The translations under genes were made by a program, and so were the position numbers. A stretch of 18,422 nt of DNA from a virus (Duplodnaviria > Heunggongvirae > Uroviricota > Caudoviricetes). Below, one piece after another: positions 1-17,806 of the stretch. The notes below the pieces were generated by a model. That model made no database searches, was not told the DNA's origin, and saw nothing but the letters and a program-made list of their open reading frames with translations. Location: IMG/VR virus record IMGVR_UViG_2582580966_000018. One strand, given 5' to 3'. Numbering within the stretch: position 1 is the stretch's first letter; each line of letters begins with the position of its first letter.

Positions 1-399
1 TCACTTCAGCGGGTAGTCATCAAACTCACCAGTCCGCGCGTCATTGATGATGTACGTCACCACCCCCTTCACTACGACTCGTTCCTCACAATCGTCGTCA
101 GTTATCCATGTCTTTTTATCAGCGTGGTCCAGTTCTTCCAGGTGCACCTTTGGCAGCAGCCTGAGACGCAACAGCCGTATCTGGTCATTCAGATGACAAA
201 TCACCAGGCTTCCGTCTACCGGAGTCAGCGATGTGTCCATGACCAGCAGAGCACCTCTCTTGATTCCTTCCCGCCATGATGTAGCAGCGTAACGGATGAA
301 GAATGTCGCCGCTGGTTTTCGTATCAACTCCTTGTCGAGTGAGATCGCATCCTCGTGGTAATCAGCAGCAGGGCTGGGAAACTGTGACATGGCAACCAT
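1..399 (-). CDS. UmuD'-like protein (S24 LexA/UmuD peptidase fold), 132 aa
   Basis: Translation aligns by eye with E. coli UmuD from the FPSPAADY motif onward; the Ser of the catalytic dyad is conserved (TSW vs GDSM). GAGG Shine-Dalgarno 6 nt upstream of ATG at 399. Window starts at its stop codon, so any downstream umuC-like partner is outside the window. Confidence 0.6.
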   Translation of the reverse strand: MVAMSQFPSPAADYHEDAISLDKELIRKPAATFFIRYAATSWREGIKRGALLVMDTSLTPVDGSLVICHLNDQIRLLRLRLLPKVHLEELDHADKKTWITDDDCEERVVVKGVVTYIINDARTGEFDDYPLK

Positions 400-414
400 A
401 ACTCACCTCATTGG

Positions 415-434
415 CACTGTATGTACATACAGTA
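415..434. promoter_or_regulatory. LexA (SOS) box, CTGT-N8-ACAG palindrome
   Basis: Sequence cACTGTATGTACATACAGTa; the 18-bp core 416-433 is a perfect palindrome matching the LexA operator consensus, 16-35 nt upstream of the UmuD'-like start codon. Confidence 0.65.
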
Positions 435-444
435 CCAATGCATG

Positions 445-488
445 GATTTTGATCGTTGCAACCGATCGATTTGAAGATTTTGATCGTT
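445..488. repeat. Two perfect 13-bp direct repeats (GATTTTGATCGTT) 31 bp apart, with three GATC sites (451, 464, 482)
   Basis: Read directly: repeat copies at 445-457 and 476-488, and a CGATCG palindrome between them at 463-468. Lies in the AT-rich divergent intergenic region upstream of the 579..1865 gene. Confidence 0.8.
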
Positions 489-578
489 ATTTCCCATAAC
501 CAAATAGTGAGCAATTTTGGGACATTTATTATAAATTTAAATTGTCTTTAAATATAAATATCCAATCGGTAAATCATC

Positions 579-1865
579 GTGAAAAATAATTCCGCGCTGT
601 TTGTTGGTTCTTTTTTTGAAAGTGACCAAAGCTCAAAAGTAAACCTGGCATTATCTTATGATGGAGAACGATTCGAAAAAATAAAGGCTCAATTCCTTTG
701 GGCTATTGGTGGAACTGGAGAAGTTTTAGGGAGAGACCCATCAATTATTTATCACAACGGTTGGTGGTTAATAGCCGTATCAGGATATACAGAAAACGTT
801 TATGACGTCGATTGCTGGCGCTCACGTGATTTAACCGTGTGGGAACTGGTACGAATTAAGCTTGGCGATACGCCAGTCTGTGGGAAACGATTACCGGGTT
901 CAGATCTGGTGACCACTGACGTGTGGGCTCCTGAATGGTTTGTTGATGACGAAAATCTGTTCCTGATAGTCAGCCTGCGTTATTACAACGATCAGACTGA
1001 CAGTAAAGGTGTAAATGTCAAAAGTTTTAAAACATTCTATTCTGTCTGTTCTGATGTTGAGAGACTGGAGTTTTACGATCCGGTTGCGGTAAATATCGAA
1101 CCAAAAAACATGATTGATTCTGTTTTTTCCAGAATATTCCAGACGTATTACCTGACAATAAAAGATGAAATCACCAAAAAAATTGAGGTGTATTGTTCAA
1201 ATTGTTTCTCAGGACAGTTCACGAAATTATCAGTAATTCCGTTTACTCAGGCGGCGGAAGGCCCGGCGCTGGTTTATTTGCCGGACGGCACGATCAGAAT
1301 CTATGCGGATTTTTTCGACACAAAAAAATGGACTTATTTTGTAGACACGAAAGACTTCGTGACGTTCACGCCAGAGCGCCCCGTTTTGTTTGACGGCAGA
1401 ATTAAGCGCGGGACTATTACAAATGTGCTGAACTGGCGCGATAGTGAAACCGCATTGCAGCAACTGTCGGCGCTGTTCTGTGCAAACTCCGGGGATTTAC
1501 AGCCAGGGAAAATCCACAAGCTCATTGATGTAGCGGGAACGAGCAATATCAACGCTACTGATTTAATCTGGTGGCCTGAAACTGGACATTGTTATTTCAC
1601 CGAGGGGTTATCCGGTAACGTGACAATCAATGCGCTGCCAACTGTTTACCCGGACGGGAGTTCGTTTTATCTGATGGTCCGAAGCGCAACGCCGGGAGCT
1701 GGTGATCTGACGCTTAAACAGGCTGTCGGCGACCTGTACCACCCGGCTAATGGCATGGCGATATTTGATGCTGATTTGGTAGTGGCGGCTGGCGGGAACG
1801 CCGCATCACGTCTGTTTAGAATGGTGTGCTTTGATGGCCAGTTGTGGGTTGAGGGGGTTTTCTGA
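579..1865 (+). CDS. Hypothetical protein, 428 aa; unknown function, AT-rich cargo gene
   Basis: Long uninterrupted ORF. Only possible start is GTG at 579 (in-frame stop at 570-572 just upstream) and there is no clear Shine-Dalgarno. No motif I can assign; the many aromatic/Gly/Asp residues hint at a beta-rich, possibly carbohydrate-active fold, but that is a guess. Confidence 0.55.
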   Translation: MKNNSALFVGSFFESDQSSKVNLALSYDGERFEKIKAQFLWAIGGTGEVLGRDPSIIYHNGWWLIAVSGYTENVYDVDCWRSRDLTVWELVRIKLGDTPVCGKRLPGSDLVTTDVWAPEWFVDDENLFLIVSLRYYNDQTDSKGVNVKSFKTFYSVCSDVERLEFYDPVAVNIEPKNMIDSVFSRIFQTYYLTIKDEITKKIEVYCSNCFSGQFTKLSVIPFTQAAEGPALVYLPDGTIRIYADFFDTKKWTYFVDTKDFVTFTPERPVLFDGRIKRGTITNVLNWRDSETALQQLSALFCANSGDLQPGKIHKLIDVAGTSNINATDLIWWPETGHCYFTEGLSGNVTINALPTVYPDGSSFYLMVRSATPGAGDLTLKQAVGDLYHPANGMAIFDADLVVAAGGNAASRLFRMVCFDGQLWVEGVF

Positions 1866-1899
1866 TATAATTGTGGCTCAATGAAAATTGGGCCACATA

Positions 1900-2961
1900 A
1901 TGAACAATAAAATATTTTCCGTCCAGTATCTTCGTGGAATAGCAGCGCTACTTGTGGTGCTGTACCATTTTTCTTTTTTTACTCCGCGCTGGTTTGCTAA
2001 TTTATTTGCAAATGGCATGGTGGGCGTTGATATTTTTTTCATTATCTCTGGATTTATTATTTATTGGTCAACAATAAATCCTGAGGAATGCAGACCAACG
2101 GTATTTATTGTTAAACGATTCGCCAGAATATACCCGCTATTTTTTGTTGTGTTACTGGTTTCGTTGTTATTGCAACCTGCGCCTGCCACACAATTATCCA
2201 GGGGTTTTCTGGTTCTGCACAACGATTACACACTACCCGCTCCGGCGTTTGGATTTAATCTGCTACCGCCCGCGTGGACATTGACTTATGAAATATCGTT
2301 CTACGCTATTTTCTGTATGTGCGCTGCAATAACGACCCGGTATCGAGGTTCATTGTGTATCGCGCTGCTGATTGCAATCCCGGCAGTGCTACAGGTTGCG
2401 TTTAATGGAGGGTTGTCGTTTAACAGCACAGTCACCGCTATCCCTCCTGCTGACTCGCCGTTTTATGGTCTAATCAGGCTGGCAGGCTCAACGATGTTTT
2501 ATGAGTTTGCGTTTGGGATTATGTCTGGAATGATATTTGAAAGGTTTAAATTAATTCTTCCTAACTTAACTGCTATTACTATAGCAATATTCGCATCGGC
2601 TTTATTTTTCTATTTTTTCTTCACATTCTCAGACCATACCAGCGGTATAGAAGGAATGTTCTTTTTTGCTGCAATATTTTTTGTGGGCGTTTTGATGCTG
2701 GATAAATCAAAGGCGGGAGAGATAAAAGCATTATCAATTCTTGGCGACCTGACATATAGCATTTATCTCTGTCATTGGCTGGTAATGCAGATGGTACAGA
2801 AATTTATTCCGATTGGGGAGTATAAGCACTGGGGCGTCCTTGTCCCCTGCATGCTTGTTGCTTCTCTGATGATGGCATTCGCAGCTAACCGGATAATTGA
2901 AAAACCGTTTATCCGTCTGGCCCGTTCGGCGCTGAAACGCCAGGAGATTACGACGCGGTAG
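1900..2961 (+). CDS. Acyltransferase family 3 integral membrane protein (O-antigen/polysaccharide O-acetyltransferase-like)
   Basis: Strongly hydrophobic multi-helix protein with the N-terminal pattern typical of acyltransferase-3 / Oac-like enzymes (LRGIAALLVVLYHF...GVDIFFIISGF). ATG at 1900 preferred over the track's TTG at 1888. Sits 23 bp after the previous gene, suggesting co-transcription. Confidence 0.7.
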   Translation: MNNKIFSVQYLRGIAALLVVLYHFSFFTPRWFANLFANGMVGVDIFFIISGFIIYWSTINPEECRPTVFIVKRFARIYPLFFVVLLVSLLLQPAPATQLSRGFLVLHNDYTLPAPAFGFNLLPPAWTLTYEISFYAIFCMCAAITTRYRGSLCIALLIAIPAVLQVAFNGGLSFNSTVTAIPPADSPFYGLIRLAGSTMFYEFAFGIMSGMIFERFKLILPNLTAITIAIFASALFFYFFFTFSDHTSGIEGMFFFAAIFFVGVLMLDKSKAGEIKALSILGDLTYSIYLCHWLVMQMVQKFIPIGEYKHWGVLVPCMLVASLMMAFAANRIIEKPFIRLARSALKRQEITTR

Positions 2962-3412
2962 CAGGACGTGGCGGCCATTCAAGGCTGTCACTTAATATCG
3001 CTGCTTCATCATTAAACTTCATTTTCTTCAAGGCATCGATATGAGCAAGCCACTCTTTAAAGGTCGCCTTCTCTTCATCGGTGATGATCTCCAGAATGAG
3101 CTTAGAAGGCCAGTGTTCGCTGCTTATATATGCGTTAGCCGCAGAGATTAACGCATCTCTCTTTGACTCGGCCTGTGCCAGTTTAAGCGCGAACAGTTCT
3201 TCTTTAGTTGGCTCGGGAATTTTTTCCCACGCAGGCATGCCGTCTGGCCCTGCAACCCTTCGCATGCCGTCTTTAACTGTTGGGTAAAATTCGGCGAAAA
3301 CACCCATATCAACCGGCACAGCATCACTGTATTCGTCCGTCTTTAACAGAGAGCTTTCCTTGAAAACAAAAGCGTTGCTTTTGGCACTATATAAAAAATC
3401 TGAATCAGACAT
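2948..3412 (-). CDS. tfa: Tail fibre assembly protein (Tfa family chaperone)
   Basis: C-terminal TDEEKA...W...EWPPRP pattern and N-terminal region resemble lambda Tfa / TfaE. Start codon overlaps the stop of the upstream tail-fibre fragment (TAATG). Converges on and overlaps the acyltransferase 3' end by 14 bp. Confidence 0.75.
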   Translation of the reverse strand: MSDSDFLYSAKSNAFVFKESSLLKTDEYSDAVPVDMGVFAEFYPTVKDGMRRVAGPDGMPAWEKIPEPTKEELFALKLAQAESKRDALISAANAYISSEHWPSKLILEIITDEEKATFKEWLAHIDALKKMKFNDEAAILSDSLEWPPRPATAS

Positions 3413-3847
3413 TACGCTCTCCCGATAGCAATCCAGTTAAAAACTGTTGGCTGCGCAGTAAAGTTGTGGTCGGACGAACTCCAGGTTGCAGAACGAACAT
3501 TAAAGCTCCCTGCGTTAACCTTTTCGGCACCATACACGGTTAAGAGTTGATAGATACCGCCGGAGGCTGTCCATCCAGAGACATGGCCTTCTACTGCAAA
3601 TACCTGGTATGAGCTCATCGCCACACCCATATTCACATTATAAAATCCGTTACTGTCCGTTGTACCTACATCCATCTGGATGATCATATTGCCAGGAAGG
3701 CGAATAACCACACCAGACCCGGTTGTTGTATAGGTAAAGGATGACATATCCGGAACTTGCCCGGTAGCCGGTATAAATCACACACTCTCCGACATACACA
3801 TCATCCGGATGGGCAAACAGCTCTTGTTTGTCTGTGAGCTCTGCCAT
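3412..3847 (-). pseudogene. Side tail fibre C-terminal fragment, frameshifted near 3772-3780
   Basis: Two overlapping minus-strand ORFs (3650..3847 and 3412..3747) in different frames. Reading across the junction gives one continuous ~145-aa product (…YVGECV | IPATGQVPDMSSFTYTTTGSG…). GGAG 3 nt upstream of ATG at 3847. Positioned directly upstream of tfa, as a tail-fibre distal domain would be. Confidence 0.45.
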
Positions 3848-4927: not shown

Positions 4928-5386
4928 TTATTTCAGGCATTGCGTCCTGATGTATTCCTGCAGGTAGTTAACCTGCGCGGTTATCTTGTCGATTCCACTT
5001 CGGAGACGGTAATAATTGAGTTCAGCATCTGCTGTAAGTCTTGGGCTTTCTCCATCGCCCATGCTGCTGGCTCCGGTCGTTGACTTTGCACAGGTGGCGG
5101 CGACTTGCAGGCGCTTACGACCAGCAGAAACATCAGCACGGAGACTTTCGATAGTCGCGTTAGCATCAGCAAGCTCCTTTGTATATCTGGCATCGAGTTC
5201 TGCTACATCACGTTGACGCTTCCGCATGTCAGCGATGGTGGCGTTCGCCTTCTCCAGTTCACTGGCCTTGTTATCGCGCTGCTCTTTGTAGGCGATTGCG
5301 TTATCACGGTAATGATTGACCGCCCACGACAGGCAGACGATGATGCAGATAACCAGAGCGGAGATAATCGCGGTTAACCGACTCAT
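4928..5386 (-). CDS. Rz: Rz i-spanin (inner-membrane spanin subunit)
   Basis: From the internal ATG ([30 protein letters not shown]…) the product closely resembles lambda Rz: N-terminal TM anchor then coiled-coil periplasmic domain. The longer ORF-track extension is rejected. Confidence 0.85.
4981..5166 (-). CDS. Rz1: Rz1 o-spanin lipoprotein, embedded in the +1 frame of Rz
   Basis: [27 protein letters not shown]… has a lipoprotein signal with Cys and a proline-rich mature part, nested inside Rz as in lambda. Confidence 0.7.
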
Positions 5387-5474
5387 GACATCAACACCCC
5401 AACGGCCAGAAACCACGGCCACGCATCGTTGCCATTCAATGCGAGCAACGCTGCCATGAAAAAGCAAATCATGC

Positions 5475-5978
5475 TCATTGTTGCCCCCACAAACAGACTT
5501 CACGCTCAATCTCACGACGGGTCATCAGCCCTTTCCATTGCTTACCGCCAGCGTATGTCCAGCGCCGTAGCTGATCACATGCGCCCTTGATATCGCCCTG
5601 GTTTATTTTGCGAAGAAGCGTCGATGTTCTGAAATTGCCTGTGCCCACGTTATAGACGAACGAGTAAAGAGCGCCGCGCGTTGTTTCCGGTATATCGACT
5701 TTGATGTACGGGTTAATTTGTCTGGCGACCGTGGCAAGGTCTTTATTCAGGAGGGCTTTGCATTCTGCTTCGGTATACGTTTTACCGAGCATGATGTCTT
5801 TTCCGGTGTGTCCGTGGCATACAGTCCATACACCAACAATATCTTTGTATGGTATGTAGCTGACACCTTCCAGACCATCGTTACCACTCGGTCCAGTGAT
5901 TAACACAGATGCTATAGCAATAGCCCCGCCACTTATCGCCGCTATTACGCTATTTCGTAGTGCCGGTGACATTGCCAT
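5475..5978 (-). CDS. SAR endolysin, T4-lysozyme family (GH24)
   Basis: Gly/Ala-rich N-terminal signal-anchor-release segment ([17 protein letters not shown]) followed by the canonical E-x8-D-x5-T catalytic triad ([18 protein letters not shown]). Confidence 0.9.
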
Positions 5979-6210
5979 TCAATCTGTCCTCGCGCTCTTT
6001 GCGCTTGTAGTACCAGTTGATGCCAAATGTGCCGACAGTACAAAGAATACCAATGATGACAGCCCAGTCATTCAGGGAGAGAATGCCACCCATCGCAGTC
6101 AGTCCTCCGAAGCTGTAACTGAACCATTCTCTGATTTTGTCCATAGCGCACGTTAATACCCGCTCGACGCTTTCTTTCAGGTATTGAAGGGATTGAGATG
6201 GGCTAAGCAT
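5950..6210 (-). CDS. Class II holin (pinholin-like), two TM segments, charged C-terminus
   Basis: Two hydrophobic segments then KRKEREDR tail. GGAGG 6 nt upstream of ATG at 6210; a second in-frame ATG at 6144 could give a shorter isoform. Sits immediately upstream of the SAR endolysin. Confidence 0.65.
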
Positions 6211-6544
6211 TATTGGCCTCCTGCATCAGGAGAAAGACAATCATGGCGGCGCGGAGAGGTCTGGTATCAAATATTGGGCTTACGCCTTTTGCATCCACAC
6301 ACCATTCAGTTAACTGGTCTAAGATAGAAATCCTGTATTTCTCAATAATCGGCCATGAAGCGCTCGGATCATTGCAGTAGTCAGGCAAATGATTTAATGG
6401 CTCAAAAGTTGTATAAGCATTTCCGTAATACCATTTGTTGGTGTTATTCCCTGATGTTTCCGGTTTACTTGCCCAAAGGCCTTTAAAAATTATGTCTCCT
6501 ACCATTCTGTTAATTTCAAAATCACTTAACTGTGAATAATCCAT
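6203..6544 (-). CDS. nin-region phage protein of unknown function (possibly NinX/DUF-type)
   Basis: ORF between ninE and the holin; GAGG 8 nt upstream of ATG at 6544 ([13 protein letters not shown]…). Family name is from uncertain recall. Confidence 0.5.
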
Positions 6545-6570
6545 TGTCATTTCCTCGCACGATATCTTAG

Positions 6571-6723
6571 CTACCGGATATCCCACAGGTGAGCTGTGTA
6601 ATTGAAGGTTTTTACGTCAGATTCTTTTGGGATTGGCTTGCGTTTATTTCTGGAGCGTTTCGTTGGAAGGTATTTGCAGTTTTCGCAGATGATGTCGGTG
6701 AAACTTCGTCGCTGTCGCCTCAT
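6571..6723 (-). CDS. ninE: NinE
   Basis: [23 protein letters not shown]… matches lambda NinE. AGGAGG 6 nt upstream of ATG at 6723; ATGA overlap with the stop of the methyltransferase gene. Confidence 0.75.
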
Positions 6724-7248
6724 GCCGCCCTCCTGACGCCCTGCCCGATCGCCATCAATGCCGCTTTGGATACGGTAGTAAACATCCGTCGAGGACTGAT
6801 GAACGGTCGCCAAATCAGCAGCATGGAGCCTTTGCTGTTTCCCTTCTTCTCCAGCCCTGTCGATGGTTCGATAAAATTAATCCGTCCATCAGTGATAATG
6901 CGAACTTCGTCGACACTCTCCAGAGCCTTGCTGAACCATCCGACTGACATATCCTCTGGCACAAGCATAACTACCGTCTGTCGCTGTTGTATGCACTGCT
7001 CAGCGGCTTTTTCCACCCACGGCCTGATATTGCTGTACGGTGGGTTATTCCAGATTGCACCGTGGCTTATCCACTCAGAATTTAGCGCGTCGTCGGCCTC
7101 AGTTAACCAGTGAGCGCACAGAGCATTTTTTGTCGCTCGCTGCCGAATCCAGCCAGAATCCAAACTCAATATCCAGTGCATCAAAAAGCCAAAGCGGCGT
7201 TTGCCAGCAGTCCTTGTCGTGTGCTGGCGTATTTGATTTGATAGTCAT
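6720..7248 (-). pseudogene. Phage N6-adenine DNA methyltransferase (Dam-like, NPPY motif), frameshifted in an A6 run
   Basis: N-terminal part (MTIKSNTPAHDKDCWQTPLWLFDALDIEFGFWLDSAASDK) and C-terminal part (NALCAHWLTEADD…WNNPPYS…) lie in two frames. The shift maps to the T6 run at plus 7126-7131; removing one base restores a continuous ~175-aa reading frame. ATGA overlap with ninB stop. Confidence 0.7.
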
Positions 7249-7685
7249 GCAGCCCGATCTCCCCATCGCGCTTTCCATTCGAGAGCCAGTCGCGCTTCGT
7301 CTGACCACTTAACGCCACGCTCTGTACCGAATGCCTGTATAAGCTCTAATAGCTCCGCAAATTCGTTTACACGCATCCTGCTGGTTGACTGGCCTATTAC
7401 CACAAAGCCATTCCCGGCAAGGTTAGGAACAACATCCTGCTGCTTTAATGCTGCGGTAAACACACACTTCCAGCTTTCTGCATCCAGCCAGCGACCATGC
7501 CATTCAACCTGACGAGAGACGTCACCAAGGCAAGCCCAAAGCTTTCGATTCTGGTCTAAGCTGCGGTTGCGTTCCTGAATGGTTACTACGATTGGTTTGG
7601 TTGGGTCTGGAAGAATTTGCTGTACCGCGTGAATAGCGTTTTGCTGATGTGCTGGAGATCGAATTTCAAAGGTTAGTTTTTTCAT
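7245..7685 (-). CDS. ninB: NinB recombination protein
   Basis: From MKKLTFEIRSPAHQQNAIHAVQQILPDPTKP… the product is near-identical to lambda NinB as I recall it. Confidence 0.9.
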   Translation of the reverse strand: MKKLTFEIRSPAHQQNAIHAVQQILPDPTKPIVVTIQERNRSLDQNRKLWACLGDVSRQVEWHGRWLDAESWKCVFTAALKQQDVVPNLAGNGFVVIGQSTSRMRVNEFAELLELIQAFGTERGVKWSDEARLALEWKARWGDRAA

Positions 7686-7701
7686 GACTTCCCTCTCCCC
7701 C

Positions 7702-7733
7702 AAATAAAAAGGCCTGCGATTACCAGCAGGCCT
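7702..7733 (-). terminator. tR2-like intrinsic terminator between ren and ninB
   Basis: Minus strand reads AGGCCTGC-tggtaatc-GCAGGCCT followed by TTTTATTT. Confidence 0.7.
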
Positions 7734-7758
7734 GTTATTAGCTCAGTGATGTAGATGG

Positions 7759-8049
7759 TCATCTTTTAACTCCATATACTGCCAATACCCGTTTCATCGC
7801 GGCACTCTGGCGACACTCCTTAAAAATCAGGTTCGTGCTCATCTTTCCTTCCCGTTCTTCCCTGGTAGCAAATCGGTAATACACCGTTCGCCAGACCTTA
7901 CCTTCGATAACCAGAAGACCTGCCCGTGCCATTTTAGCCGCGGCCTGATTTATGCTGGTTACTGTTGCGCCTGTTAGCGCGGCAACGTCCGGCGCACAGA
8001 AGCTATTATGCGTCCCCAGGTAATGAATAATTGCCTCTTTGCCCGTCAT
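7759..8049 (-). CDS. ren: Ren
   Basis: 96-aa product matches lambda Ren; ATGA overlap with P stop. Confidence 0.9.
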   Translation of the reverse strand: MTGKEAIIHYLGTHNSFCAPDVAALTGATVTSINQAAAKMARAGLLVIEGKVWRTVYYRFATREEREGKMSTNLIFKECRQSAAMKRVLAVYGVKR

Positions 8050-8747
8050 ACACTTGCTCCTTTCAGTCCGAACTTAGCTTTGATTTCTGCGATCTTCGCC
8101 AGAGCCTGTGCACGATTTAGAGGTCTACCGCCCATGACAGGAAGTTGTTTTACTGGTTCAGGGATCGCCTCACCACGGTTAATTCTCGCAGTCATATGGA
8201 CAAGCTCATCTGCGGCCTTACGGCGTAATTCCGCATCAGTAAGCGCATTGGCCCGCATGTTCTGATACAGGTTGGTAACCAGCCAGTAGTGCGCGTTTGA
8301 TTTCCACGGATAAGACTCCGCATCCGGATACAGGCCTCGCTTCCGGCAATACTCGTAAACCATATCAACCAGCTCGCTGACGTTTGGCAGTCCGGCGGTA
8401 ACGGATGCTTCTTCCCGGCACCATGCAACAAACTGCCCGGGTGATGGCAGAAATGGTCGATTCTGCCGACGGGCTACGCGCATTCCTGCGTTAACCTGTT
8501 CCATCGTGGTGATCCCGTTTTCCCGAAAAGCCAGAACCCACTGGCGACGGATTTCGTTCACTTCGTTCTGGTCACGGTTAGCCAGGCTCGCCGGGAAAGT
8601 TGCCAGTAACTGGCTGAACACACCGTTGATGATCTGCGCTACCTGCTGTACCTGCGGCTTTTCGTCGTACTGTTCCGGCATGTTGTTGGCGATCCGACGC
8701 ATCTGCTCACGGTCAAAGTTAACCATCTGTGCGGCGATGTTTTTCAT
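8046..8747 (-). CDS. P: Replication protein P (DnaB helicase loader)
   Basis: 233-aa product matches lambda P (MKNIAAQMVNFDREQMRRIANNMPEQYDEKPQV…). Confidence 0.95.
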   Translation of the reverse strand: MKNIAAQMVNFDREQMRRIANNMPEQYDEKPQVQQVAQIINGVFSQLLATFPASLANRDQNEVNEIRRQWVLAFRENGITTMEQVNAGMRVARRQNRPFLPSPGQFVAWCREEASVTAGLPNVSELVDMVYEYCRKRGLYPDAESYPWKSNAHYWLVTNLYQNMRANALTDAELRRKAADELVHMTARINRGEAIPEPVKQLPVMGGRPLNRAQALAKIAEIKAKFGLKGASV

Positions 8748-9643
8748 AGATCCACCCCGTAAATCCAGTCTGTGTTTGTCAGGTCGAGTTTTGGTTTGCT
8801 GGCTGTCATGCCTGCCTGTTGCTTGTTACGGTTGATTTCGAGTTGGGTCCACTTATCGCGGAGTTTGGCCGGGCTCAGCACGTTACCGGACCAGAAGTTG
8901 TCCTGGCATGCCCAGCGGAACAGCACGCACATGTCACGGTGGTTACGTCCGTCACGTTCACGCATCAGGCGGATATCGTTAGCCCACCCAGCAAAATTCG
9001 GTTTTCTGGCTGATGGTGCGATAGTCTTCACCATGTCAAACATCCACTCTGCGGCGGTCAGGTCTTCTGCTGTCCCCCACTTGCTGCCGCTCTGAATTGC
9101 AGCATCCGGTTTCACCACAGAAAGGTCGTTTTCTGGCTGGTCAGAGGATTCGCCAGAATTCTCTGACGAATAATCTTTTCTTTTTTCTTTTGTAATAGTG
9201 TCTTTTGTGTCCCCCTGTTTTGAGGGATAGCAATCCCCCAATTTGAGGGATGTTTTATCCCTCGTTTTAGGGGATTTTCCCTCGTTTTGAGGGATGCACC
9301 ATTCTGAGATGTTTTTATTTGGTCCAAACATGCCGCCTTGCTGCTTGATAATATTCATTCTGACGAGTTCTAACTTGGCTTCATTGCACCGTTTGACGGG
9401 TAACTTTGTAATCTCGCTAAGTTGAGAATCGGTGATTCTGTCCATTGGTTTATTCCACCCATAGGTTTTACGCAGAATGGCAAGCAGCACTTTAAACTGT
9501 CGCTTGGTCAGATCTGCGCCCGAATAAGCCTCAAGCAGCATATTTGATAGTCTGGCGTAACCATCATCGAGATCTGCCACATTACGCTCCTGTCCGGCAA
9601 AGTTACCTCTGCCGAAGTTGAGTATTTTTGCTGTATTTGTCAT
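8744..9643 (-). CDS. O: Replication initiator O
   Basis: 299-aa product matches lambda O; contains the ori iterons and the EcoRI site (GAATTC at 9157-9162) internally. Confidence 0.95.
   Translation of the reverse strand: MTNTAKILNFGRGNFAGQERNVADLDDGYARLSNMLLEAYSGADLTKRQFKVLLAILRKTYGWNKPMDRITDSQLSEITKLPVKRCNEAKLELVRMNIIKQQGGMFGPNKNISEWCIPQNEGKSPKTRDKTSLKLGDCYPSKQGDTKDTITKEKRKDYSSENSGESSDQPENDLSVVKPDAAIQSGSKWGTAEDLTAAEWMFDMVKTIAPSARKPNFAGWANDIRLMRERDGRNHRDMCVLFRWACQDNFWSGNVLSPAKLRDKWTQLEINRNKQQAGMTASKPKLDLTNTDWIYGVDL
9170..9293. repeat. ori-lambda: four iterons (about 9210-9293) plus adjacent AT-rich unwinding region (about 9170-9209) inside O
   Basis: Repeated TCCCTCAAAACGAGGGA-type units on the minus strand (plus: …ccctgttttgaggga…ccctcgttttagggga…ccctcgttttgaggga) next to an A/T-rich stretch, as in lambda ori. 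Confidence 0.9.
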
Positions 9644-9653
9644 AATGACTCCT

Positions 9654-9730
9654 GTTGATAGATCCAGTAATGACCTCAGAACTCCATCTGGATTTGTTCA
9701 GAACGCTCGGTTGCCGCCGGGCGTTTTTTA
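9654..9730 (+). ncRNA. oop: oop antisense RNA (antisense to the cII 3' end)
   Basis: Plus strand GTTGATAGATCCAGTAATGACC…GCCGCCGGGCGTTTTTTATT matches the lambda OOP RNA as I recall it, ending in a GC-rich hairpin plus U tract. Confidence 0.65.
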
Positions 9731-9969
9731 TTGGTGAGAATCGCAGCAACTTGTCGCGCCAATCGAGCCATGTCGTCGTCAACGACCCCCCATTCAAGAA
9801 CAGCAAGCAGCATTGAGAACTTTGGAATCCAGTCCCTCTTCCACCTGCTGATCTGCGACTTATCAACGCCCACAGCTTCCGCTGTCTTCTCAGTTCCAAG
9901 CATTGCGATTTTGTTAAGCAACGCACTCTCGATTCGTAGAGCCTCGTTGCGTTTGTTTGCACGAACCAT
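9676..9969 (-). CDS. cII: Transcriptional activator CII
   Basis: MVRANKRNEALRIESALLNKIAMLGTEKTAEAVGVDKSQISRWKRDWIPKFSMLLAVLEWGVVDDDMARLARQVAAILTNKKRPAATERSEQIQMEF matches lambda CII. Preceded by AAGGAAATACTTACAT-ATG as in lambda. The ORF-track N-terminal extension is rejected. Confidence 0.95.
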   Translation of the reverse strand: MVRANKRNEALRIESALLNKIAMLGTEKTAEAVGVDKSQISRWKRDWIPKFSMLLAVLEWGVVDDDMARLARQVAAILTNKKRPAATERSEQIQMEF

Positions 9970-10048
9970 ATGTAAGTATTTCCTTAGATAACAATTGATT
10001 GAATGTATGCAAATAAATGCATACACCATAGGTGTGGTTTAATTTGAT

Positions 10049-10080
10049 GCCCTTTTTCAGGGCTGGGATGTGTAAGAGCG
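10049..10080 (-). promoter_or_regulatory. nutR (boxA CGCTCTTACA, boxB GCCCTGAAAAAGGGC) upstream of tR1
   Basis: boxB at plus 10049-10063 and boxA (reverse complement) at 10071-10080, between cro and cII. Confidence 0.8.
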
Positions 10081-10088
10081 GGAATGTC

Positions 10089-11444
<1,356 letters not shown>

Positions 11445-11494
11445 TCCCCACCTCAATCTCGATAACCAAAAAACAAACTATTTTCCGTTTAAAA

Positions 11495-11563
11495 ACAATG
11501 GAGTTTGTTTTTCATGCCCCTTTCTTACAATATTTCTTGTTTACAACATACAATCTTTTTTGT
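11495..11563. promoter_or_regulatory. OL operator region with pL: three 434-type 14-bp sites
   Basis: ACAATGGAGTTTGT (11495-11508), ACAATATTTCTTGT (11527-11540), ACAATCTTTTTTGT (11550-11563), followed by the lambda-like pL transcript start sequence ATCAGCAGGACGCACTGACC near 11575. Confidence 0.8.
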
Positions 11564-11608
11564 AATTTTAAACCATCAGCAGGACGCACTGACCACCATT
11601 GAAGGTGA

Positions 11609-11639
11609 TGCTCTTAAAAATTAAGCCCTGAAGAAGGGC
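11609..11639 (+). promoter_or_regulatory. nutL (boxA GCTCTTAAAAATTAA, boxB GCCCTGAAGAAGGGC)
   Basis: Matches lambda nutL as recalled; lies in the pL leader upstream of N. Confidence 0.85.
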
Positions 11640-11797
11640 AGCATTCAAAGCAGAAGGCTTTGGGGTGTGTGATACGAAACGAAGCATTGGCCGGAAGTGC
11701 GAATCCGGATTAGCTGCAAATGAGCCAATCGTGGGGTGTTTTCGTTCAGGACTACGACTCACACACACCACCAAAGCTAACTGACAAGAGAATCCAG

Positions 11798-12121
11798 ATG
11801 GATGCACAAACACGCCGCCGCGAACGTCGCGCAGAGAAACAGGCTCAATGGAAAGCAGCAAATCCCCTGTTGGTTGGGGTAAGCGCAAAACCAGTTAACC
11901 GCCCTATTCTCTCGCTGAATCGCAAACCGAAATCACGAGTAGAAAGCGCACTGAATCCGATAGACCTTACGGTGCTGGCTGAATACCACGAACAGATTGA
12001 AAGCAACCTGCAACGTATTGAGCGCAAGAATCTTCGAGTTTGGTATAGCAAGCCAAGTGAGTTCGGTATAACTTGTCAAGGAAGACAAAAGGTTAAAGGG
12101 AAATCCATTCCATTGGCATGA
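11798..12121 (+). CDS. N: Antitermination protein N
   Basis: MDAQTRRRERRAEKQAQWKAANPLLVGVSAKPVNRPILSLNRKPKSRVESALNPIDLTVLAEYH… matches lambda N with a few substitutions; includes the arginine-rich boxB-binding motif. The ORF-track upstream extension is rejected. Confidence 0.9.
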   Translation: MDAQTRRRERRAEKQAQWKAANPLLVGVSAKPVNRPILSLNRKPKSRVESALNPIDLTVLAEYHEQIESNLQRIERKNLRVWYSKPSEFGITCQGRQKVKGKSIPLA

Positions 12122-12129
12122 GGTACGTA

Positions 12130-12210
12130 ATGAAGAAAATTGATTACAAGTCCATACCAAAACCAATAGACTCAGCATCAGAGCGAAAAAAAACACAAAA
12201 AAGAGGCTGA
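12130..12210 (+). CDS. Possible small basic peptide, 26 aa (MKKIDYKSIPKPIDSASERKKTQKRG)
   Basis: ATG 6 nt after a GAGG that sits right at the N stop codon. Not in the ORF track because it is under 60 aa. Could be non-coding. Confidence 0.25.
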   Translation: MKKIDYKSIPKPIDSASERKKTQKRG

Positions 12211-12319
12211 AAAATTAGCAAATTATATCAGTTTTATTAGAAACAATGCTCACGGCGATGGCGACAGGAAGTTGCTTTCAGATGCCCGGACCCAAGCGTT
12301 CAGCATACTTCGTAAGCAG

Positions 12320-13000
12320 ATGCAATATCGTCTTCATCCAGGCTACATAATTGAAATTCGCCCGACTGAAAGACAATTGTTCTTATTAAACTCTGTCTTT
12401 GACTTTGTAAACGTAGTTGGAGATCTTATCGACAGGTCTGTAGATAAGGCTCCTGATACAAATAGTTTTCTTCTAACAAATAAAGAATACTTATATGGTA
12501 AATTTGGTATAAACGGATGGCAAAAATATGTACGATTCTTACGTGCATTCGTTGATGCGAATAAAAATTCCGACATGATTTATACATATTTGCCTGGTGG
12601 TAATAATTGTACGCTTTCGGCAGACAATAGAATATTCATACCTATACTTGGTCTTGGGCTGATTAATGCAGTAAATGAAAGAGATGTTATAATTGTTAAG
12701 CAGTGGCGAAAGCATGAGGGATATAGATATCTGCCATGCTTTGATATATTAAAAATACAGAATAAATTCTATGTAAAAATTAAATATAAAGAAGATGTTT
12801 TCTTCCTCAGAAAAAACAAAGATCTTTTACAAGAACTTTCTGGGACAATAGATGTCATCGTAGGTTCTAGGTTTATAAAAGAACTGAAAGAAAGCAGGTC
12901 TTTCTCTCGTGTAGAGATAAGCGAGTCAGAGTTATGGGGTATATCAAATAATCCTGTAAACCACGCTCACCAACGAAATCCAAACAAAAAGTGGTCATAA
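12320..13000 (+). CDS. Hypothetical protein, 226 aa (242 aa if the TTG at 12272 is used); AT-rich accessory gene in the sieB/ral position
   Basis: Long ORF in visibly AT-rich DNA between N and ea10. No TM segments or motifs I recognise. Start is uncertain. Followed directly by an intrinsic terminator. Confidence 0.55.
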   Translation: MQYRLHPGYIIEIRPTERQLFLLNSVFDFVNVVGDLIDRSVDKAPDTNSFLLTNKEYLYGKFGINGWQKYVRFLRAFVDANKNSDMIYTYLPGGNNCTLSADNRIFIPILGLGLINAVNERDVIIVKQWRKHEGYRYLPCFDILKIQNKFYVKIKYKEDVFFLRKNKDLLQELSGTIDVIVGSRFIKELKESRSFSRVEISESELWGISNNPVNHAHQRNPNKKWS

Positions 13001-13024
13001 CCCGCTCAGGCGGGTTTCATTTTC
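13000..13024 (+). terminator. Intrinsic terminator after the accessory gene
   Basis: aCCCGC-tcag-GCGGGt followed by TTCATTTTC. Confidence 0.6.
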
Positions 13025-13142
13025 ACGCAAACAACAGAATAAACACTGCACTGTGTATTCATTCCAACGAGTGAATACACGGAGCAATGTCGCTCGTAAC
13101 TAAACAGGAGTCGACTTGTTCTGATTATTGGAAATCTTCTTT

Positions 13143-13172
13143 GCCCTCCAGTGTGAGGGCGATTTTTTATCT
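13143..13172 (+). terminator. Intrinsic terminator upstream of ea10
   Basis: GCCCTC-cagtgt-GAGGGC followed by GATTTTTTATCT. Confidence 0.6.
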
Positions 13173-13188
13173 GTGAGGATATGAACAG

Positions 13189-13557
13189 ATGTCAAACATC
13201 AAAAAATACATCATTGATTACGACTGGAAAGCATCAATAGAAATTGAAATCGACCATGACGTAATGACAGAGGAAAAACTTCACCAGATTAATAATTTCT
13301 GGTCAGACTCTGAATACCGACTCAATAAACACGGCTCTGTATTAAATGCTGTATTAATCATGCTGGCGCAACATGCTCTGCTTATAGCAATTTCAAGCGA
13401 CTTAAATGCATATGGTGTTGTGTGTGAGTTCGACTGGAATGATGGAAATGGTCAGGAAGGATGGCCTCCAATGGATGGTAGCGAAGGAATAAGAATTACC
13501 GATATCGATACATCAGGAATATTTGATCCAGATGATATGACTATCAAAGCCGCCTGA
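13189..13557 (+). CDS. ea10: Ea10 (lambda early protein, 122 aa)
   Basis: Length and sequence consistent with lambda Ea10 as recalled; GAGGA Shine-Dalgarno upstream; position between the sieB/ral slot and cIII. Confidence 0.75.
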   Translation: MSNIKKYIIDYDWKASIEIEIDHDVMTEEKLHQINNFWSDSEYRLNKHGSVLNAVLIMLAQHALLIAISSDLNAYGVVCEFDWNDGNGQEGWPPMDGSEGIRITDIDTSGIFDPDDMTIKAA

Positions 13558-13629
13558 GCGCGGCGTTACCGCATACCAATAACGCTTCACTCGAGGCGTT
13601 TTTCGTTATGTATAAATAAGGAGCACACC

Positions 13630-13794
13630 ATGCAATATGCCATTGCAGGGTGGCCTGTTGCTGGCTGCCCTTCCGAATCTTTACTTGAACGAATCACCCG
13701 TAAATTACGTGACGGATGGAAACGCCTTATCGACATACTTAATCAGCCAGGAGTCCCAAAAAATGGATCAAACACTTATGGCTATCCAGACTAA
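13630..13794 (+). CDS. cIII: CIII (FtsH inhibitor), 54 aa
   Basis: [54 protein letters not shown] matches lambda CIII. AAGGAG upstream. Missing from the ORF track because it is under 60 aa. Confidence 0.9.
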   Translation: MQYAIAGWPVAGCPSESLLERITRKLRDGWKRLIDILNQPGVPKNGSNTYGYPD

Positions 13795-13927
13795 ATTCAC
13801 TATCGCCACTTTTATTGGCGATGAAAAGATGTTTCGTGAGGCCGTCGACGCTTATAAAAAATGGATATTAATACTGAAACTGAGATCAAGCAAAAGCATT
13901 CACTACCCCCCTTCCCTGTTTTCCTAA
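13763..13927 (+). CDS. kil: Kil (host-killing/FtsZ inhibitor), 54 aa here
   Basis: [34 protein letters not shown]… overlaps the cIII 3' end and the gam 5' end, as lambda kil does. Confidence 0.7.
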
Positions 13928-14277
13928 TCAGCCCGGCATTTCGCGGACGATATTTTCACAGCTATTTCAGGAGTTCAGCCATGAACGCTTATTACATTCA
14001 GGATCGTCTTGAGGCTCAGAGCTGGGCGCGTCACTACCAGCAGATCGCCCGTGAAGAGAAAGAGGCAGAACTGGCAGACGACATGGAAAAAGGCCTGCCC
14101 CAGCACCTGTTTGAATCGCTATGCATCGATCATTTGCAACGCCACGGGGCCAGCAAAAAAGCCATTACCCGTGCGTTTGATGACGATGTTGAGTTTCAGG
14201 AGCGCATGGCAGAACACATCCGGTACATGGTTGAAACCATTGCTCACCATCAGGTTGATATTGATTCAGAGGTATAA
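13861..14277 (+). CDS. gam: Gam (RecBCD inhibitor), long form
   Basis: 138-aa product matches lambda Gam; internal [21 protein letters not shown] start of the short form is present. Confidence 0.9.
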
Positions 14278-14282
14278 AACGG

Positions 14283-15068
14283 ATGAGTACAGCACTCGCA
14301 ACGCTGGCAGGGAAGCTGGCTGAACGTGTCGGCATGGATTCTGTCGACCCACAGGAACTGATCACCACTCTTCGCCAGACGGCATTTAAAGGTGATGCCA
14401 GCGATGCGCAGTTCATCGCATTGTTGATCGTCGCCAACCAGTACGGCCTTAATCCGTGGACGAAAGAAATTTACGCCTTCCCTGATAAGCAGAACGGCAT
14501 CGTTCCGGTGGTGGGCGTTGATGGCTGGTCCCGTATCATCAATGAAAACCAGCAGTTTGATGGCATGGACTTTGAGCAGGACAATGAATCCTGCACATGC
14601 CGGATTTACCGCAAGGACCGTAATCATCCGATCTGCGTTACCGAGTGGATGGATGAATGCCGCCGCGAACCATTCAAAACCCGCGAAGGCAGAGAAATCA
14701 CGGGGCCGTGGCAGTCGCATCCCAAACGGATGTTGCGTCATAAAGCCATGATTCAGTGTGCCCGTCTGGCCTTCGGATTTGCTGGTATCTATGACAAGGA
14801 TGAAGCCGAGCGCATTGTCGAAAATACCGCATACACTGCAGAACGTCAGCCGGAACGCGACATCACTCCGGTTAACGATGAAACCATGCAGGAGATTAAC
14901 ACTCTGCTGATTGCCCTGGATAAAACATGGGATGACGACTTATTGCCGCTCTGTTCCCAGATATTTCGCCGCGACATTCGCGCATCGTCAGAACTGACAC
15001 AGGCCGAAGCAGTGAAAGCTCTTGGATTCCTGAAACAGAAAGCCTCTGAGCAGAAGGTGGCTGCATGA
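14283..15068 (+). CDS. bet: Bet (Red-beta single-strand annealing protein)
   Basis: 261-aa product matches lambda Bet. Confidence 0.95.
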
Positions 15069-15745
15069 CACCGGACATTATCCTGCAGCGTACCGGGATC
15101 GACGTGAGAGCTGTCGAACAGGGAGATGATGCGTGGAACAAATTACGACTCGGCGTCATCACGGCTTCAGAAGTTCACAATGTGATAGCAAAACCCCGCT
15201 CCGGTAAAAAGTGGCCTGACATGAAAATGTCCTACTTTCACACCCTGCTGGCTGAGATTTGTACCGGTGTGGCTCCGGAAGTTAACGCTAAGGCGCTGGC
15301 CTGGGGAAAAAAGTACGAGAATGACGCCAGAGCCCTGTTTGAGTTTACTTCCGGCGTGAATGTTACTGAATCCCCGATCATCTATCGCGACGAAAGTATG
15401 CGCACCGCCTGCTCTCCCGATGGTTTATGCAGTGACGGCAACGGCCTTGAGCTGAAATGCCCGTTTACCTCCCGGGATTTCATGAAGTTCCGGCTCGGTG
15501 GTTTCGAGGCCATAAAGTCGGCTTACATGGCCCAGGTGCAGTACAGCATGTGGGTGACGCGAAAAGATGCCTGGTACTTTGCCAACTATGACCCACGAAT
15601 GAAGCGTGAAGGCCTGCATTATGTCGTGGTTGAGCGGGATGAAAATTACATGGCGAGTTTTGACGAGATGGTGCCGGAGTTCATCGAAAAAATGGACGAG
15701 GCACTGGCTGAAATTGGTTTTGTATTTGGGGAGCAATGGCGATGA
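15065..15745 (+). CDS. exo: Exo (Red-alpha 5'-3' exonuclease)
   Basis: 226-aa product matches lambda Exo with synonymous differences (the lambda EcoRI site in exo is absent here: GAGTTT instead of GAATTC at about 15341-15346). Confidence 0.95.
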
Positions 15746-15924
15746 CGCATCCTCACGATAATATCCGGGTAGGCGCGATCACTTTCGTCTACTCCGTTAC
15801 AAAGCGAGGCTGGGTATTTCCCGGCCTTTCTGTTACCCGAAATCCCCTGAAAGCACAGCGGCTGGCTGAGGAGATAAATAATAAACGGGGAGCTGTATGC
15901 ACAAAGCATCTCCTGTTGAGTTAA
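15736..15924 (+). CDS. Lambda orf60a-like small protein
   Basis: Position immediately after exo and sequence consistent with lambda orf60a as recalled. Confidence 0.6.
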
Positions 15925-16088
15925 GAACGAGCATTGAGATGGCACATAGCCTCGCTCAAATTGGAGTCAGGTTTGTGCCAATACCGGTAGAAACAGACGA
16001 AGAATTTCATACGTTAGCCGCATCCCTTTCACAAAAGCTGGAAATGATGGTGGCGAAAGCAGAAGCAGATGAGAGAGACCAGGTATGA
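15897..16088 (+). CDS. Lambda orf63-like small protein
   Basis: Position and sequence consistent with lambda orf63. Confidence 0.65.
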   Translation: MHKASPVELRTSIEMAHSLAQIGVRFVPIPVETDEEFHTLAASLSQKLEMMVAKAEADERDQV

Positions 16089-16168
16089 CAACCACTGAAT
16101 GCATTTTTCTGGCAGCGGGCTTCATATTCTGTGTGCTTATGCTTGCCGACATGGGACTTGTTCAATGA
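16085..16168 (+). CDS. Possible 27-aa hydrophobic peptide (MTTTECIFLAAGFIFCVLMLADMGLVQ)
   Basis: ATG overlaps the orf63 stop (ATGA) and its TGA overlaps the next gene's ATG (ATGA): coupled on both sides. One predicted TM helix. Not in the ORF track (under 60 aa). Confidence 0.3.
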   Translation: MTTTECIFLAAGFIFCVLMLADMGLVQ

Positions 16169-16380
16169 CACCTCAGCAAGAAAACGCCCTTCGCAGTATT
16201 GCCCGTCAGGCTAATTCTGAAATCAAAAAAGCCAGACAGCAGTTTCCGGATAAAAACGTCGATGACATTTGCCGTAGCGTACTGAAGAAGCACCGCGAAA
16301 CGGTAACGCTGATGGGATTCACACCGACTCATTTAAGCCTGGCGATCGGCATGTTAAACGGCGTCTTTAAGGAACGGTGA
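16165..16380 (+). CDS. Lambda orf61-like small protein
   Basis: MTPQQENALRSIARQANSEIKKARQQFPDKNVDD…; position consistent with lambda orf61. The ORF-track upstream extension is rejected in favour of the coupled ATG. Confidence 0.6.
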   Translation: MTPQQENALRSIARQANSEIKKARQQFPDKNVDDICRSVLKKHRETVTLMGFTPTHLSLAIGMLNGVFKER

Positions 16381-16402
16381 GCATGAAAAACAAAATCATC
16401 AT

Positions 16403-16426
16403 GGAGCTACAGGCTCCTTTTTTATT
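16403..16426 (+). terminator. Intrinsic terminator-like hairpin after orf61
   Basis: GGAGC-tacag-GCTCC followed by TTTTTTATT. Confidence 0.5.
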
Positions 16427-16478
16427 ATTCGCATTCACCCTCAAGCGTATTAACCAACAATTCAGGGATTAATGAAAG

Positions 16479-16700
16479 ATGGCAGACATCATTGATTCAG
16501 CATCAGAAATTGAAGAATTACAGCGCAACACAGCAATAAAAATGCGCCGTCTGAACCACCAGGCTATATCTGCCACTCATTGTTGTGAGTGTGGCGATCC
16601 GATAGATGAACGAAGACGCTTGGCCGTTCAGGGTTGTCGGACTTGTGCAAGTTGCCAGGAGGATCTGGAACTTATCAGTAAACAGAGAGGTTCGAAGTGA
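16479..16700 (+). CDS. TraR/DksA-family C4 zinc-finger protein (lambda orf73-like)
   Basis: CCECGDP…CRTCASC four-cysteine motif typical of TraR/DksA-type RNA-polymerase-binding proteins. Confidence 0.8.
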   Translation: MADIIDSASEIEELQRNTAIKMRRLNHQAISATHCCECGDPIDERRRLAVQGCRTCASCQEDLELISKQRGSK

Positions 16701-17245: not shown

Positions 17246-17436
17246 GATCGGTTTTGTAAAAGATAACGCTTGTGAAAATGCTGAATTTCGCGTCGTCTTC
17301 ACAGCGATGCCAGAGTCTGTAGTGTCAGATGATGACCGTACTCAAACATCGGGTTGAGTATTATCTTACTGTTTCTTTACATAAACATTGCTGATACCGT
17401 TTAGCTGAAACGACATACATTGCAAGGAGTTTATAA

Positions 17437-17718: not shown

Positions 17719-17735
17719 ACCCAATATTACATAAC

Positions 17736-17767
17736 AATCCTCGCACTCGCGGGGATTTCTTTTATCT
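17736..17767 (+). terminator. Intrinsic terminator after ea8.5 (first of tandem pair)
   Basis: AATCCTCGC-actc-GCGGGGATT (9-bp stem, one G-U) followed by TCTTTTATCT. Confidence 0.65.
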
Positions 17768-17769
17768 GA

Positions 17770-17795: not shown

Positions 17796-17806
17796 GGAGA
17801 CAAGAA

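Follow-up and report, generated by a model that had tools for sequence, protein, structure and literature searches.

The viral sequence IMGVR_UViG_2582580966_000018 (Caudoviricetes; 18,422 nt, the whole of which is referred to below as the window) carries two co-oriented genes at positions 579–2961, next to its tail-fibre genes. The first, open reading frame 1 (ORF1), codes, as judged from its relatives and its predicted structure, for the head of a tailspike without a virion anchor. The second, ORF2, codes for a membrane acyltransferase of the acyltransferase-3 (AT3) family and is also called AT3 here. The best overall explanation, to which we give a probability of roughly 55%, is that the two are separable, independently mobile genes stacked as phage cargo, the AT3 being a conversion gene and ORF1 an anchorless tailspike head. 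The two genes and the gene on which they converge are:

579–1865, plus strand: ORF1, 428 amino acids (aa), GTG start and TGA stop, as in the ORF list; predicted anchorless tailspike-head protein.
1900–2961, plus strand: ORF2 (AT3), 353 aa from a conserved ATG; AT3-only membrane acyltransferase.
2948–3412, minus strand: tfa, tail-fibre assembly protein (Pfam Caudo_TAP, 2.4e-14; PHROG 188, 2.2e-28).

Neither ORF is a chance reading frame. At least 24 public contigs code for an identical ORF1 product, and a homologue of 78% identity starts with ATG at the codon at which the window has GTG. Compared to this homologue, ORF1 shows a non-synonymous divergence (dN) of 0.17 with saturated synonymous divergence (dS), and a dN/dS of 0.03–0.13 in those segments for which dS was defined. 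The dN/dS of AT3 against its homologue is 0.065. Copies, conserved start and substitution figures thus confirm the two genes proposed in a preliminary description of this DNA, which also placed them correctly as a pair converging on tfa; at their 3' ends, the ORFs of AT3 and tfa have 14 nt in common. ORF2 was listed at 1888–2961 (plus strand, 357 aa) with a TTG start, whereas the ATG at 1900 (MNNKIF.../MNQKIF...) is the start in all homologues and according to gene callers. The gap behind the ORF1 stop codon measures 22 nt to the TTG and 34 nt to the ATG, which replaces the 23 bp given before. The pair had also been described as lying in AT-rich DNA; this applies to most of the span, with a G + C content of 0.40–0.45, but not to positions 1251–1750 (0.51), where the propeller of ORF1 ends and its C-terminal domain starts. 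Positions 400–3000 were searched as nucleotides against the complete E. coli genomes of RefSeq and against GenBank phages, with no match, and a scan of the GTDB species-representative genomes found nothing. An NCBIfam scan returned nothing useful, and PADLOC no defence-system match for ORF1, AT3 or the S24 gene upstream of ORF1.

The fold of ORF1, previously called unknown, is predicted to be a five-bladed beta-propeller of the GH43/GH159 type, followed by a tailspike-type beta-sandwich. Since some database records already name ORF1 a 'glycoside hydrolase family 43 protein', the fold as such is not new knowledge. The parts of the protein relevant to this assignment are:

579–1430, plus strand: ORF1 residues 1–284, five-bladed beta-propeller, GH43/GH159-like (AlphaFold2, Foldseek, Pfam).
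1431–1862, plus strand: ORF1 residues 285–428, linker helix and gp10/XD-type tailspike beta-sandwich.
735–737, plus strand: D53, candidate catalytic residue, general base by alignment.
1116–1118, plus strand: D180, candidate catalytic residue, pKa modulator by alignment.
1257–1259, plus strand: E227, candidate catalytic residue, general acid by alignment.
1407–1409, plus strand: R277 (CGC), replacing a near-invariant His.

The AlphaFold2 model of ORF1 has a pLDDT of 92.5. With this model, Foldseek gave GH159, GH43 and GH62 structures as top matches at a probability of 1.00; the top matches in the PDB were the GH159 structure 7zei and the GH43 structures 6euh, 4qqs and 3vsf (E 1e-9 to 1e-8). 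The C-terminal domain matches tailspike XD-type domains, and the PHROG match of ORF1 is to 'tail protein'. Domain scan and conservation counts were based on a sample of 71 relatives of ORF1, 60 of which reach E ≤ 1e-3 with GH43 (the best 1e-17). All 71 have D180 and E227, and 66 have D53; a profile search aligns D53 with the general base D15 of XynB3 (2exj). A literature search on GH43 and five-bladed-propeller tailspikes found no characterised member of the phage clade of ORF1.

The difference between ORF1 and its relatives lies in what precedes the propeller. A HMMER scan of 1.84 billion representative sequences yielded 316 relatives, and among the 150 listed nearly all are longer proteins in which the ORF1-like region comes after about 100–660 residues. 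The N-termini of sampled relatives belong to Tail_spike_N, tail-collar fibre, T7 tail-fibre, P22 head-binding or BppU_N domains, and six carry an S74 chaperone at the C-terminal end. The closest anchored relative (P0005, 47% identity over ORF1 residues 3–424) belongs to a set of four tailspikes in an Ackermannviridae-like phage, itself a relative of Erwinia phage phiEa2809. Homology to the relatives begins at ORF1 residues 2–8, about seven residues lie ahead of the propeller, and an in-frame stop is located two codons 5' of the start. ORF1 contains no anchor domain of Pfam, no transmembrane (TM) segment and no signal-like N-terminus, residues 8–13 being a propeller strand. By domain comparison and model, ORF1 is a complete tailspike head without virion anchor.

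This form is not confined to the window. Its length of 428 aa and the position of its start are kept in E. coli, in Cronobacter and in an Ewingella-type lineage at 61–78% identity, and among the searches made the anchorless form occurred in these three Enterobacterales lineages only. Judged by the substitution figures, ORF1 persists under purifying selection. In all loci it is located beyond tfa, on the strand opposite to the late structural operon. In the literature, searched also for free depolymerases of prophages, no account of a tailspike head that lacks an anchor and serves as prophage cargo was found; it is an undescribed kind of cargo.

The sampled homologues are tailspike and tail-fibre proteins, nearly all with the shared region inside a longer chain, and ORF1 might therefore be an accessory receptor-binding protein (RBP) or depolymerase of the virion that docks non-covalently on the short fibre or baseplate, with AT3 as a conversion gene behind it. 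Its C-terminal domain resembles the XD domains that mediate docking between tailspikes in TSP4 of CBA120, and in three genera ORF1 always directly adjoins fibre and tfa, with or without AT3. However, a virion protein would be expected neither past tfa on the strand opposite the whole late operon, nor behind a GTG start with a weak ribosome-binding site (RBS), nor in a slot in which phage SfV keeps its conversion genes. The fibre C-termini, moreover, vary by lineage (243, 267 and 283 aa) while ORF1 remains 61–78% identical. The homologue P0024, with about 23 residues before its propeller, is encoded within the structural module of a P22-like podovirus and speaks for a virion role; in ORF1, the anchor domain is missing and about seven residues remain. 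Overall we regard a docked virion protein as unlikely, and continue with ORF1 as a cargo gene.

The assignment of the second gene is decisive. ORF2 matches Pfam Acyl_transf_3 (PF01757) at 4.6e-34 with 118.4 bits against a cut-off of 31, its residues 11–332 covering positions 3–323 of the 326-position profile. Matches to PHROG 3333 'O-acetyltransferase' (1e-56) and PHROG 6705 'O-antigen acetylase' (1e-12) agree with this. The protein has at least seven strongly hydrophobic 19-residue segments. A Pfam scan of its 353 aa found no second domain and no SGNH fusion, and the lack of an SGNH domain places it in the AT3-only class, like Oac. A review of the family lists R/K-X10-H in the first TM segment, RXXR in the first cytoplasmic loop and V-X-X-F-F-X-(I/V/L)-S-G-(F/W/Y) as functionally important (PMC9558356). 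All three motifs are present in the translated sequence of ORF2:

1933–1968, plus strand: AT3 motif R12-X10-H23.
2026–2055, plus strand: AT3 motif V43xxFFxISGF52 (VDIFFIISGF).
2116–2127, plus strand: AT3 motif R73xxR76 (RFAR).

With a score of 118 bits against 31 and the three motifs, the family named for ORF2 in the preliminary description is upheld. Close relatives of this AT3 (72–82% identity) all occupy the same slot in related prophages of Cronobacter and E. coli. The next tier, at about 43–45% identity, is found in Enterobacter, where the single context examined is a small integrase-associated island. In sequenced phages the best matches reach 26–37% identity and are annotated only as ExoZ-like or as acyltransferase, and 18 of 50,697 phage records matched at all. 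The AT3 is an ordinary addition to the well-known prophage acetyltransferases. Homology and slot position make the modification of a surface glycan a well-founded prediction, and its location in the slot in which SfV has gtrABC supports a role in lysogenic conversion. By analogy, the target is most likely the O-antigen. The earlier proposal that the gene pair modifies surface polysaccharide and alters the serotype is accordingly retained as a predicted role of AT3, though not with ORF1 as its partner.

Recurrence of the gene pair in other genomes had been suggested as a check, and ORF1 and AT3 were indeed found together in Cronobacter turicensis prophages and in locus L011. Each gene also occurs without the other. 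The E. coli prophages L018 and L019 carry an AT3 of 72% identity in the slot (positions 9001–10068 in L018) with no trace of ORF1, and in the Ewingella-type locus L125 an ORF1 of 61% identity (7001–8287) is directly convergent on tfa with no AT3. A remnant of an HTH_7 invertase lies upstream of AT3 in L018. AT3 furthermore has a putative promoter of its own:

1863–1871, plus strand: TGATATAAT, ORF1 stop codon fused to an extended -10 box, putative AT3 promoter.

A TATAAT or TATACT box, followed by GGCT..AAGAATTGA, is located about 30 nt 5' of the AT3 ATG in the window, in L011 (at about 1405), in L016 (at about 8965) and in the AT3-only loci L018 (at about 8965) and L019. The idea of an operon in which ORF1 is the enzymatic partner of the acyltransferase is not supported, in view of this separate -10 box and of the occurrence of each gene alone. 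We also considered ORF1 as the periplasmic SGNH-like partner discussed for AT3-only proteins (PMC9558356). This was rejected because ORF1 has no signal peptide or TM segment and a different fold, and because the genes occur alone. Among 84 distant loci, two have an anchored GH43-like tailspike gene with a convergent AT3 directly behind it: L042 (AT3 of 44% identity, followed by umuD-umuC) and L039 (AT3 of 24% identity). For comparison, this AT3 finds a match in only the 18 of 50,697 phage records mentioned above. The window also shares a umuD-like gene with L042 (48% identity), which points to a neighbourhood of umuD, AT3 and a receptor-binding gene common to both.

The setting of the two genes explains the term cargo. 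Over positions 5118–18182 the window matches, on its minus strand, the part of phage 434/lambda that comprises the early, nin and lysis region (97% identity), while positions 1–3772 are 99.97% identical to the end of the intact prophage L003/L006. This intact prophage, whose baseplate is Mu-like, is similar to vB_EcoM-611R5, Salmonella SEN34 and the Shigella Sf phages. The two matches make the prophage of the window a hybrid without head or tail genes: its early and lysis genes are lambda/434-like and have been joined to the terminal 3.8 kb of an SfV/SEN34-like myovirus. It adjoins dacD-sbmC-yeeA in E. coli. The junction cuts a fibre gene:

3412–3772, minus strand: 3' remnant of a 243-aa tail-fibre gene (111-aa ORF at 3412–3747); identity to L003 stops at about 3772.

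In the intact 243-aa fibre the conserved N-terminal anchor comprises residues 1–125, and the junction at about 3772 falls on the boundary between this anchor and the variable tip. In locus L009 an integrase gene lies just past the umuD-like gene, from which the order on the phage follows as fibre, tfa, AT3, ORF1, umuD-like gene, attP and int, with AT3 and ORF1 read from the other strand than the fibre genes. In the equivalent slot SfV has gtrA-gtrB-gtrV, after fibre and tfa, convergent on tfa and before attP-int, and vB_EcoM-611R5 has a Mu G-like inverted tfa'/fibre' pair with a DNA invertase. Across these phages the slot is occupied by ORF1 alone, by AT3 alone, by both, by gtrABC in SfV, or by an invertible fibre cassette in vB_EcoM-611R5, which makes it a hot spot for the swapping of receptor-related cargo. 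Assembly GCA_000704585.1 contains two copies of the module on separate contigs (L005/L009), one by dacD and the other by the integrase gene, which points to a prophage that is present in tandem, in excised form or as a second copy.

The cassette of vB_EcoM-611R5, which consists of tfa', fibre' and invertase and is flanked by inverted repeats, raises the question whether the segment in the window is itself an invertible cassette of the Mu G or P1 C type, with ORF1 as an alternative fibre tip that is fused after inversion. The inverted orientation of ORF1, its homology to fibre and spike tips and the HTH_7 remnant in L018 would fit. Yet an in-frame stop stands two codons before the start, and an own ATG or GTG start is kept in four homologues. 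The fibre gene shares no inverted repeat with the 5' end of ORF1 in the window, L003, L011, L016 or L125, no invertase gene is present, and the invertible segment was rejected as having next to no probability. The two genes are better described as separate cargo in a variable slot.

The folds, families, positions, conservation and separability of the two genes are described above. Both genes belong to the cargo slot between tail-fibre/tfa and attP of an SfV/SEN34-like temperate myovirus, a slot that has been retained in the hybrid, tail-less lambdoid prophage next to dacD. For their substrates, expression timing and cooperation we infer the following. In the general model for AT3 proteins, an acyl group is transferred from cytoplasmic acyl-CoA to a glycan at the outer face of the inner membrane (PMC9558356). 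The AT3 of the window, like Oac of Sf6, would take its acyl groups from acyl-CoA in the cytoplasm and attach them, on the periplasmic side, to a glycan of the cell surface, and this acylation would change the serotype and block glycan-dependent phage adsorption. ORF1 would be the receptor-binding and catalytic head of a tailspike that has lost all virion-anchor domains and is made as a free protein in the cytoplasm. It would reach its substrate at cell lysis and act there on unmodified surface polysaccharide, while AT3, where present, would shield the glycan of the lysogen. That ORF1 is such a soluble, non-virion factor that binds or depolymerises glycans upon lysis, with acetylation by AT3 as protection, is our preferred but tentative reading of the gene, with a chance well short of even. 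A full 'modify-self / degrade-non-self' system, in which ORF1 is a depolymerase for use off the virion, lysogens acetylate the glycan that they carry, and enzyme from a lysing minority strips the unmodified glycan of non-lysogen neighbours, is rather improbable. If true, it would expose the neighbours to the short-fibred phage or remove the receptors of rival phages.

A protein with no signal peptide or TM segment could also act where it is made. ORF1 would then be a cytoplasmic enzyme of the lysogen that trims or cuts undecaprenyl-linked O-unit or polymer intermediates at the inner membrane face, leading to subtractive serotype conversion or loss of O-antigen and complementing or replacing AT3. 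The moron slot, the orientation opposite to the late genes, the conserved catalytic triad and the occurrence of ORF1 alone in the slot (L125) are compatible with this, and GH159 and exo-acting GH43 enzymes are among the nearest solved folds. Tailspike heads, however, usually act on extracellular polymers, and a tailspike-type enzyme that works in the cytoplasm is, to our knowledge, without precedent. In addition, cutting lipid-linked intermediates of O-antigen or enterobacterial common antigen (ECA) could trap undecaprenyl phosphate and be toxic. An enzyme acting inside the lysogen thus seems quite improbable to us.

Several observations weigh against the explanation of AT3 as an O-antigen conversion gene next to a functional anchorless head. 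ECA, colanic acid or capsule may be the substrate of AT3 as well as O-antigen, and homology gives no choice between them. The match of ORF1 itself to Pfam GH43 (1.4e-5, 25 bits) is below the gathering cut-off of 32.2, and its GH32N match is also sub-threshold. Position 277, in an R-H-G motif of the clade in the last blade, is His in 70 of the 71 relatives and Arg only in the window allele, the copy of which may be altered or impaired by this exchange; other E. coli alleles (P0282–P0284, P0288 and P0289) retain His277. As ORF1 has no export signal, it cannot reach surface glycan in an intact lysogen. The gene has a GTG start with a weak Shine-Dalgarno sequence, and neither a promoter by consensus scan nor an upstream motif conserved between lineages was found. 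Ten E. coli copies are identical across window positions 1–2961, bar one mismatch in L009, so their retention in the tail-less prophage is uninformative with respect to selection. Finally, adjacency of GH43-like and AT3 genes is rare, with no case among 79 distant metagenome loci, and a general linkage of the two gene types was rejected.

Some of these points lead to another reading of ORF1, namely as the 3' part of a tailspike gene that moved together with a downstream acetyltransferase gene, lost its anchor and is now a functionless, decaying relic. In Lederberg- and Uetakeviruses an O-antigen modification gene stands behind the RBP (PMC10408124), and a comparable layout is seen in L042 and L039. 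In these two loci, tailspike and AT3 are convergent and not co-oriented, so a simple truncation cannot give the layout of the window. The H277R exchange, the GTG start with its weak RBS and the existence of truncated E. coli variants of 342 and 404 aa would suit a decaying gene; the intact catalytic triad, a dN of 0.17 at saturated dS with a dN/dS of 0.03–0.13 where dS is defined, and a length of 428 aa and start that are constant across three lineages at 61–78% identity would not. The occurrence of ORF1 without AT3 (L125) also speaks against a relic. We consider a relic very doubtful and maintain that ORF1 and AT3 are two separable cargo genes.

Upstream of ORF1, the divergent intergenic region of 179 bp and the gene behind it contain the following elements:

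1–399, minus strand: umuD-like S24 gene, orphan, divergent from ORF1 (Pfam Peptidase_S24; PHROG 811 'UmuD-like', 2.2e-40).
415–434, no strand assigned: near-consensus LexA (SOS) box CACTGTATGTACATACAGTA, a palindrome read from the sequence, 16 nt from the start codon of the umuD-like gene.
445–488, no strand assigned: Dam/OxyR-switch-like GATC cluster with GATC at 451, 464 and 482, GATCG-N7-CGATC at 451–467 and the 13-nt direct repeat GATTTTGATCGTT.

No umuC is present beside the umuD-like gene of the window, and dacD comes next in the genome, whereas umuC follows the umuD-like gene of L042. Every lineage has a LexA box at a distance of 16–20 nt from its divergent gene, whether umuD-like or another small gene, and in L042 such a box precedes umuD. 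The small genes concerned upstream of ORF1 are UmuD-like in Cronobacter (PHROG 3469) and belong to PHROG 2100 in the Ewingella-type lineage. The box was considered as a regulator site of ORF1, but it is best given to the divergent umuD-like or small gene.

The GATC-N9-GATC arrangement occurs once in the window. Its form, GATCG-N7-CGATC, is the same as that of the two double-GATC OxyR half-sites of P22 gtr (PMC2909390) and of GATC-II/III of agn43. On the minus strand, all three GATC sites are in register with agn43, with about 68% identity over 53 nt by our own count. The element is absent from the Cronobacter loci. It hints at a possible phase variation by Dam and OxyR, which may concern the umuD-like gene, ORF1 or the two together. 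In L011, a perfect 9-bp inverted repeat with two GATC sites (GGAGATCAA-N14-TTGATCTCC, positions 5–35) is located 5' of the 78% homologue of ORF1; it may be a binding site for a regulator. In the Cronobacter locus L016 this repeat is degenerate and has no GATC.

Acetyltransferases of prophages are a known route to serotype change and phage resistance, to which this AT3 adds one more case. What is unusual is a tailspike head that is kept under selection without a means of joining a virion, in a slot for the remodelling of the host surface. If ORF1 acts off the virion, it would widen the repertoire of lysogenic conversion or of competition between phages, and would at the same time be a compact, naturally soluble, glycan-specific enzyme. 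With regard to the partner question of AT3-only proteins, this neighbour is not needed, because each gene occurs without the other. The natural alleles H277 and R277 provide a ready test of activity versus binding.

Compared to known systems, the AT3 resembles Oac/OacA of Shigella phage Sf6 and OacB (PF01757), which likewise consist of a single AT3 domain of about 350 aa with the same motifs and no SGNH domain, and are prophage cargo near receptor-binding genes and attP. It differs from the Oac type in that no close characterised relative was found for it and in being preceded by a tailspike-head gene. The gtrABC genes of SfV belong to the same type of phage and stand in the same slot, between the short fibre with tfa and attP-int, where they likewise converge on tfa. 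In contrast to them, the predicted modification is acetylation and not glucosylation, there is no sequence relation, and SfV has no GATC switch upstream of gtrA.

For ORF1, the next comparison is with tailspikes and fibres that carry a GH43-like head, such as P0005, the tail-collar fibre of a Serratia prophage (P0004, 31% identity at 88% query coverage) and the tail fibre of Pantoea phage PdC23. These are homologous to nearly full ORF1 and have the same Asp/Asp/Glu residues. Unlike them, ORF1 lacks the N-terminal anchor of 100–370 aa and the S74 chaperone, lies on the strand opposite to the structural genes, and has a single C-terminal domain, as against an apparent two in most relatives. With clan GH-F (GH43, and the GH159 enzyme Ch_Gaf159A, PDB 7zei) ORF1 shares the five-bladed propeller, and D53, D180 and E227 align with base, modulator and acid. 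It differs from the clan in an identity of only 10–20%, a score under the Pfam GH43 cut-off and the H277R exchange in the window allele.

A glycan-cleaving head and a glycan-modifying enzyme are found side by side in P22, in the form of gp9 and gtrABC, as are ORF1 and AT3. Further pairs of cleaving and modifying proteins are the endosialidase of CUS-3 with NeuO, and ExoK with ExoZ in their relationship in succinoglycan. In the pairs of a tailspike and a receptor-modifying enzyme, the glycanase is fixed to the virion by an anchor. ORF1, in contrast, has no anchor and is encoded in the same orientation as AT3, and each of these two genes can occur without the other.

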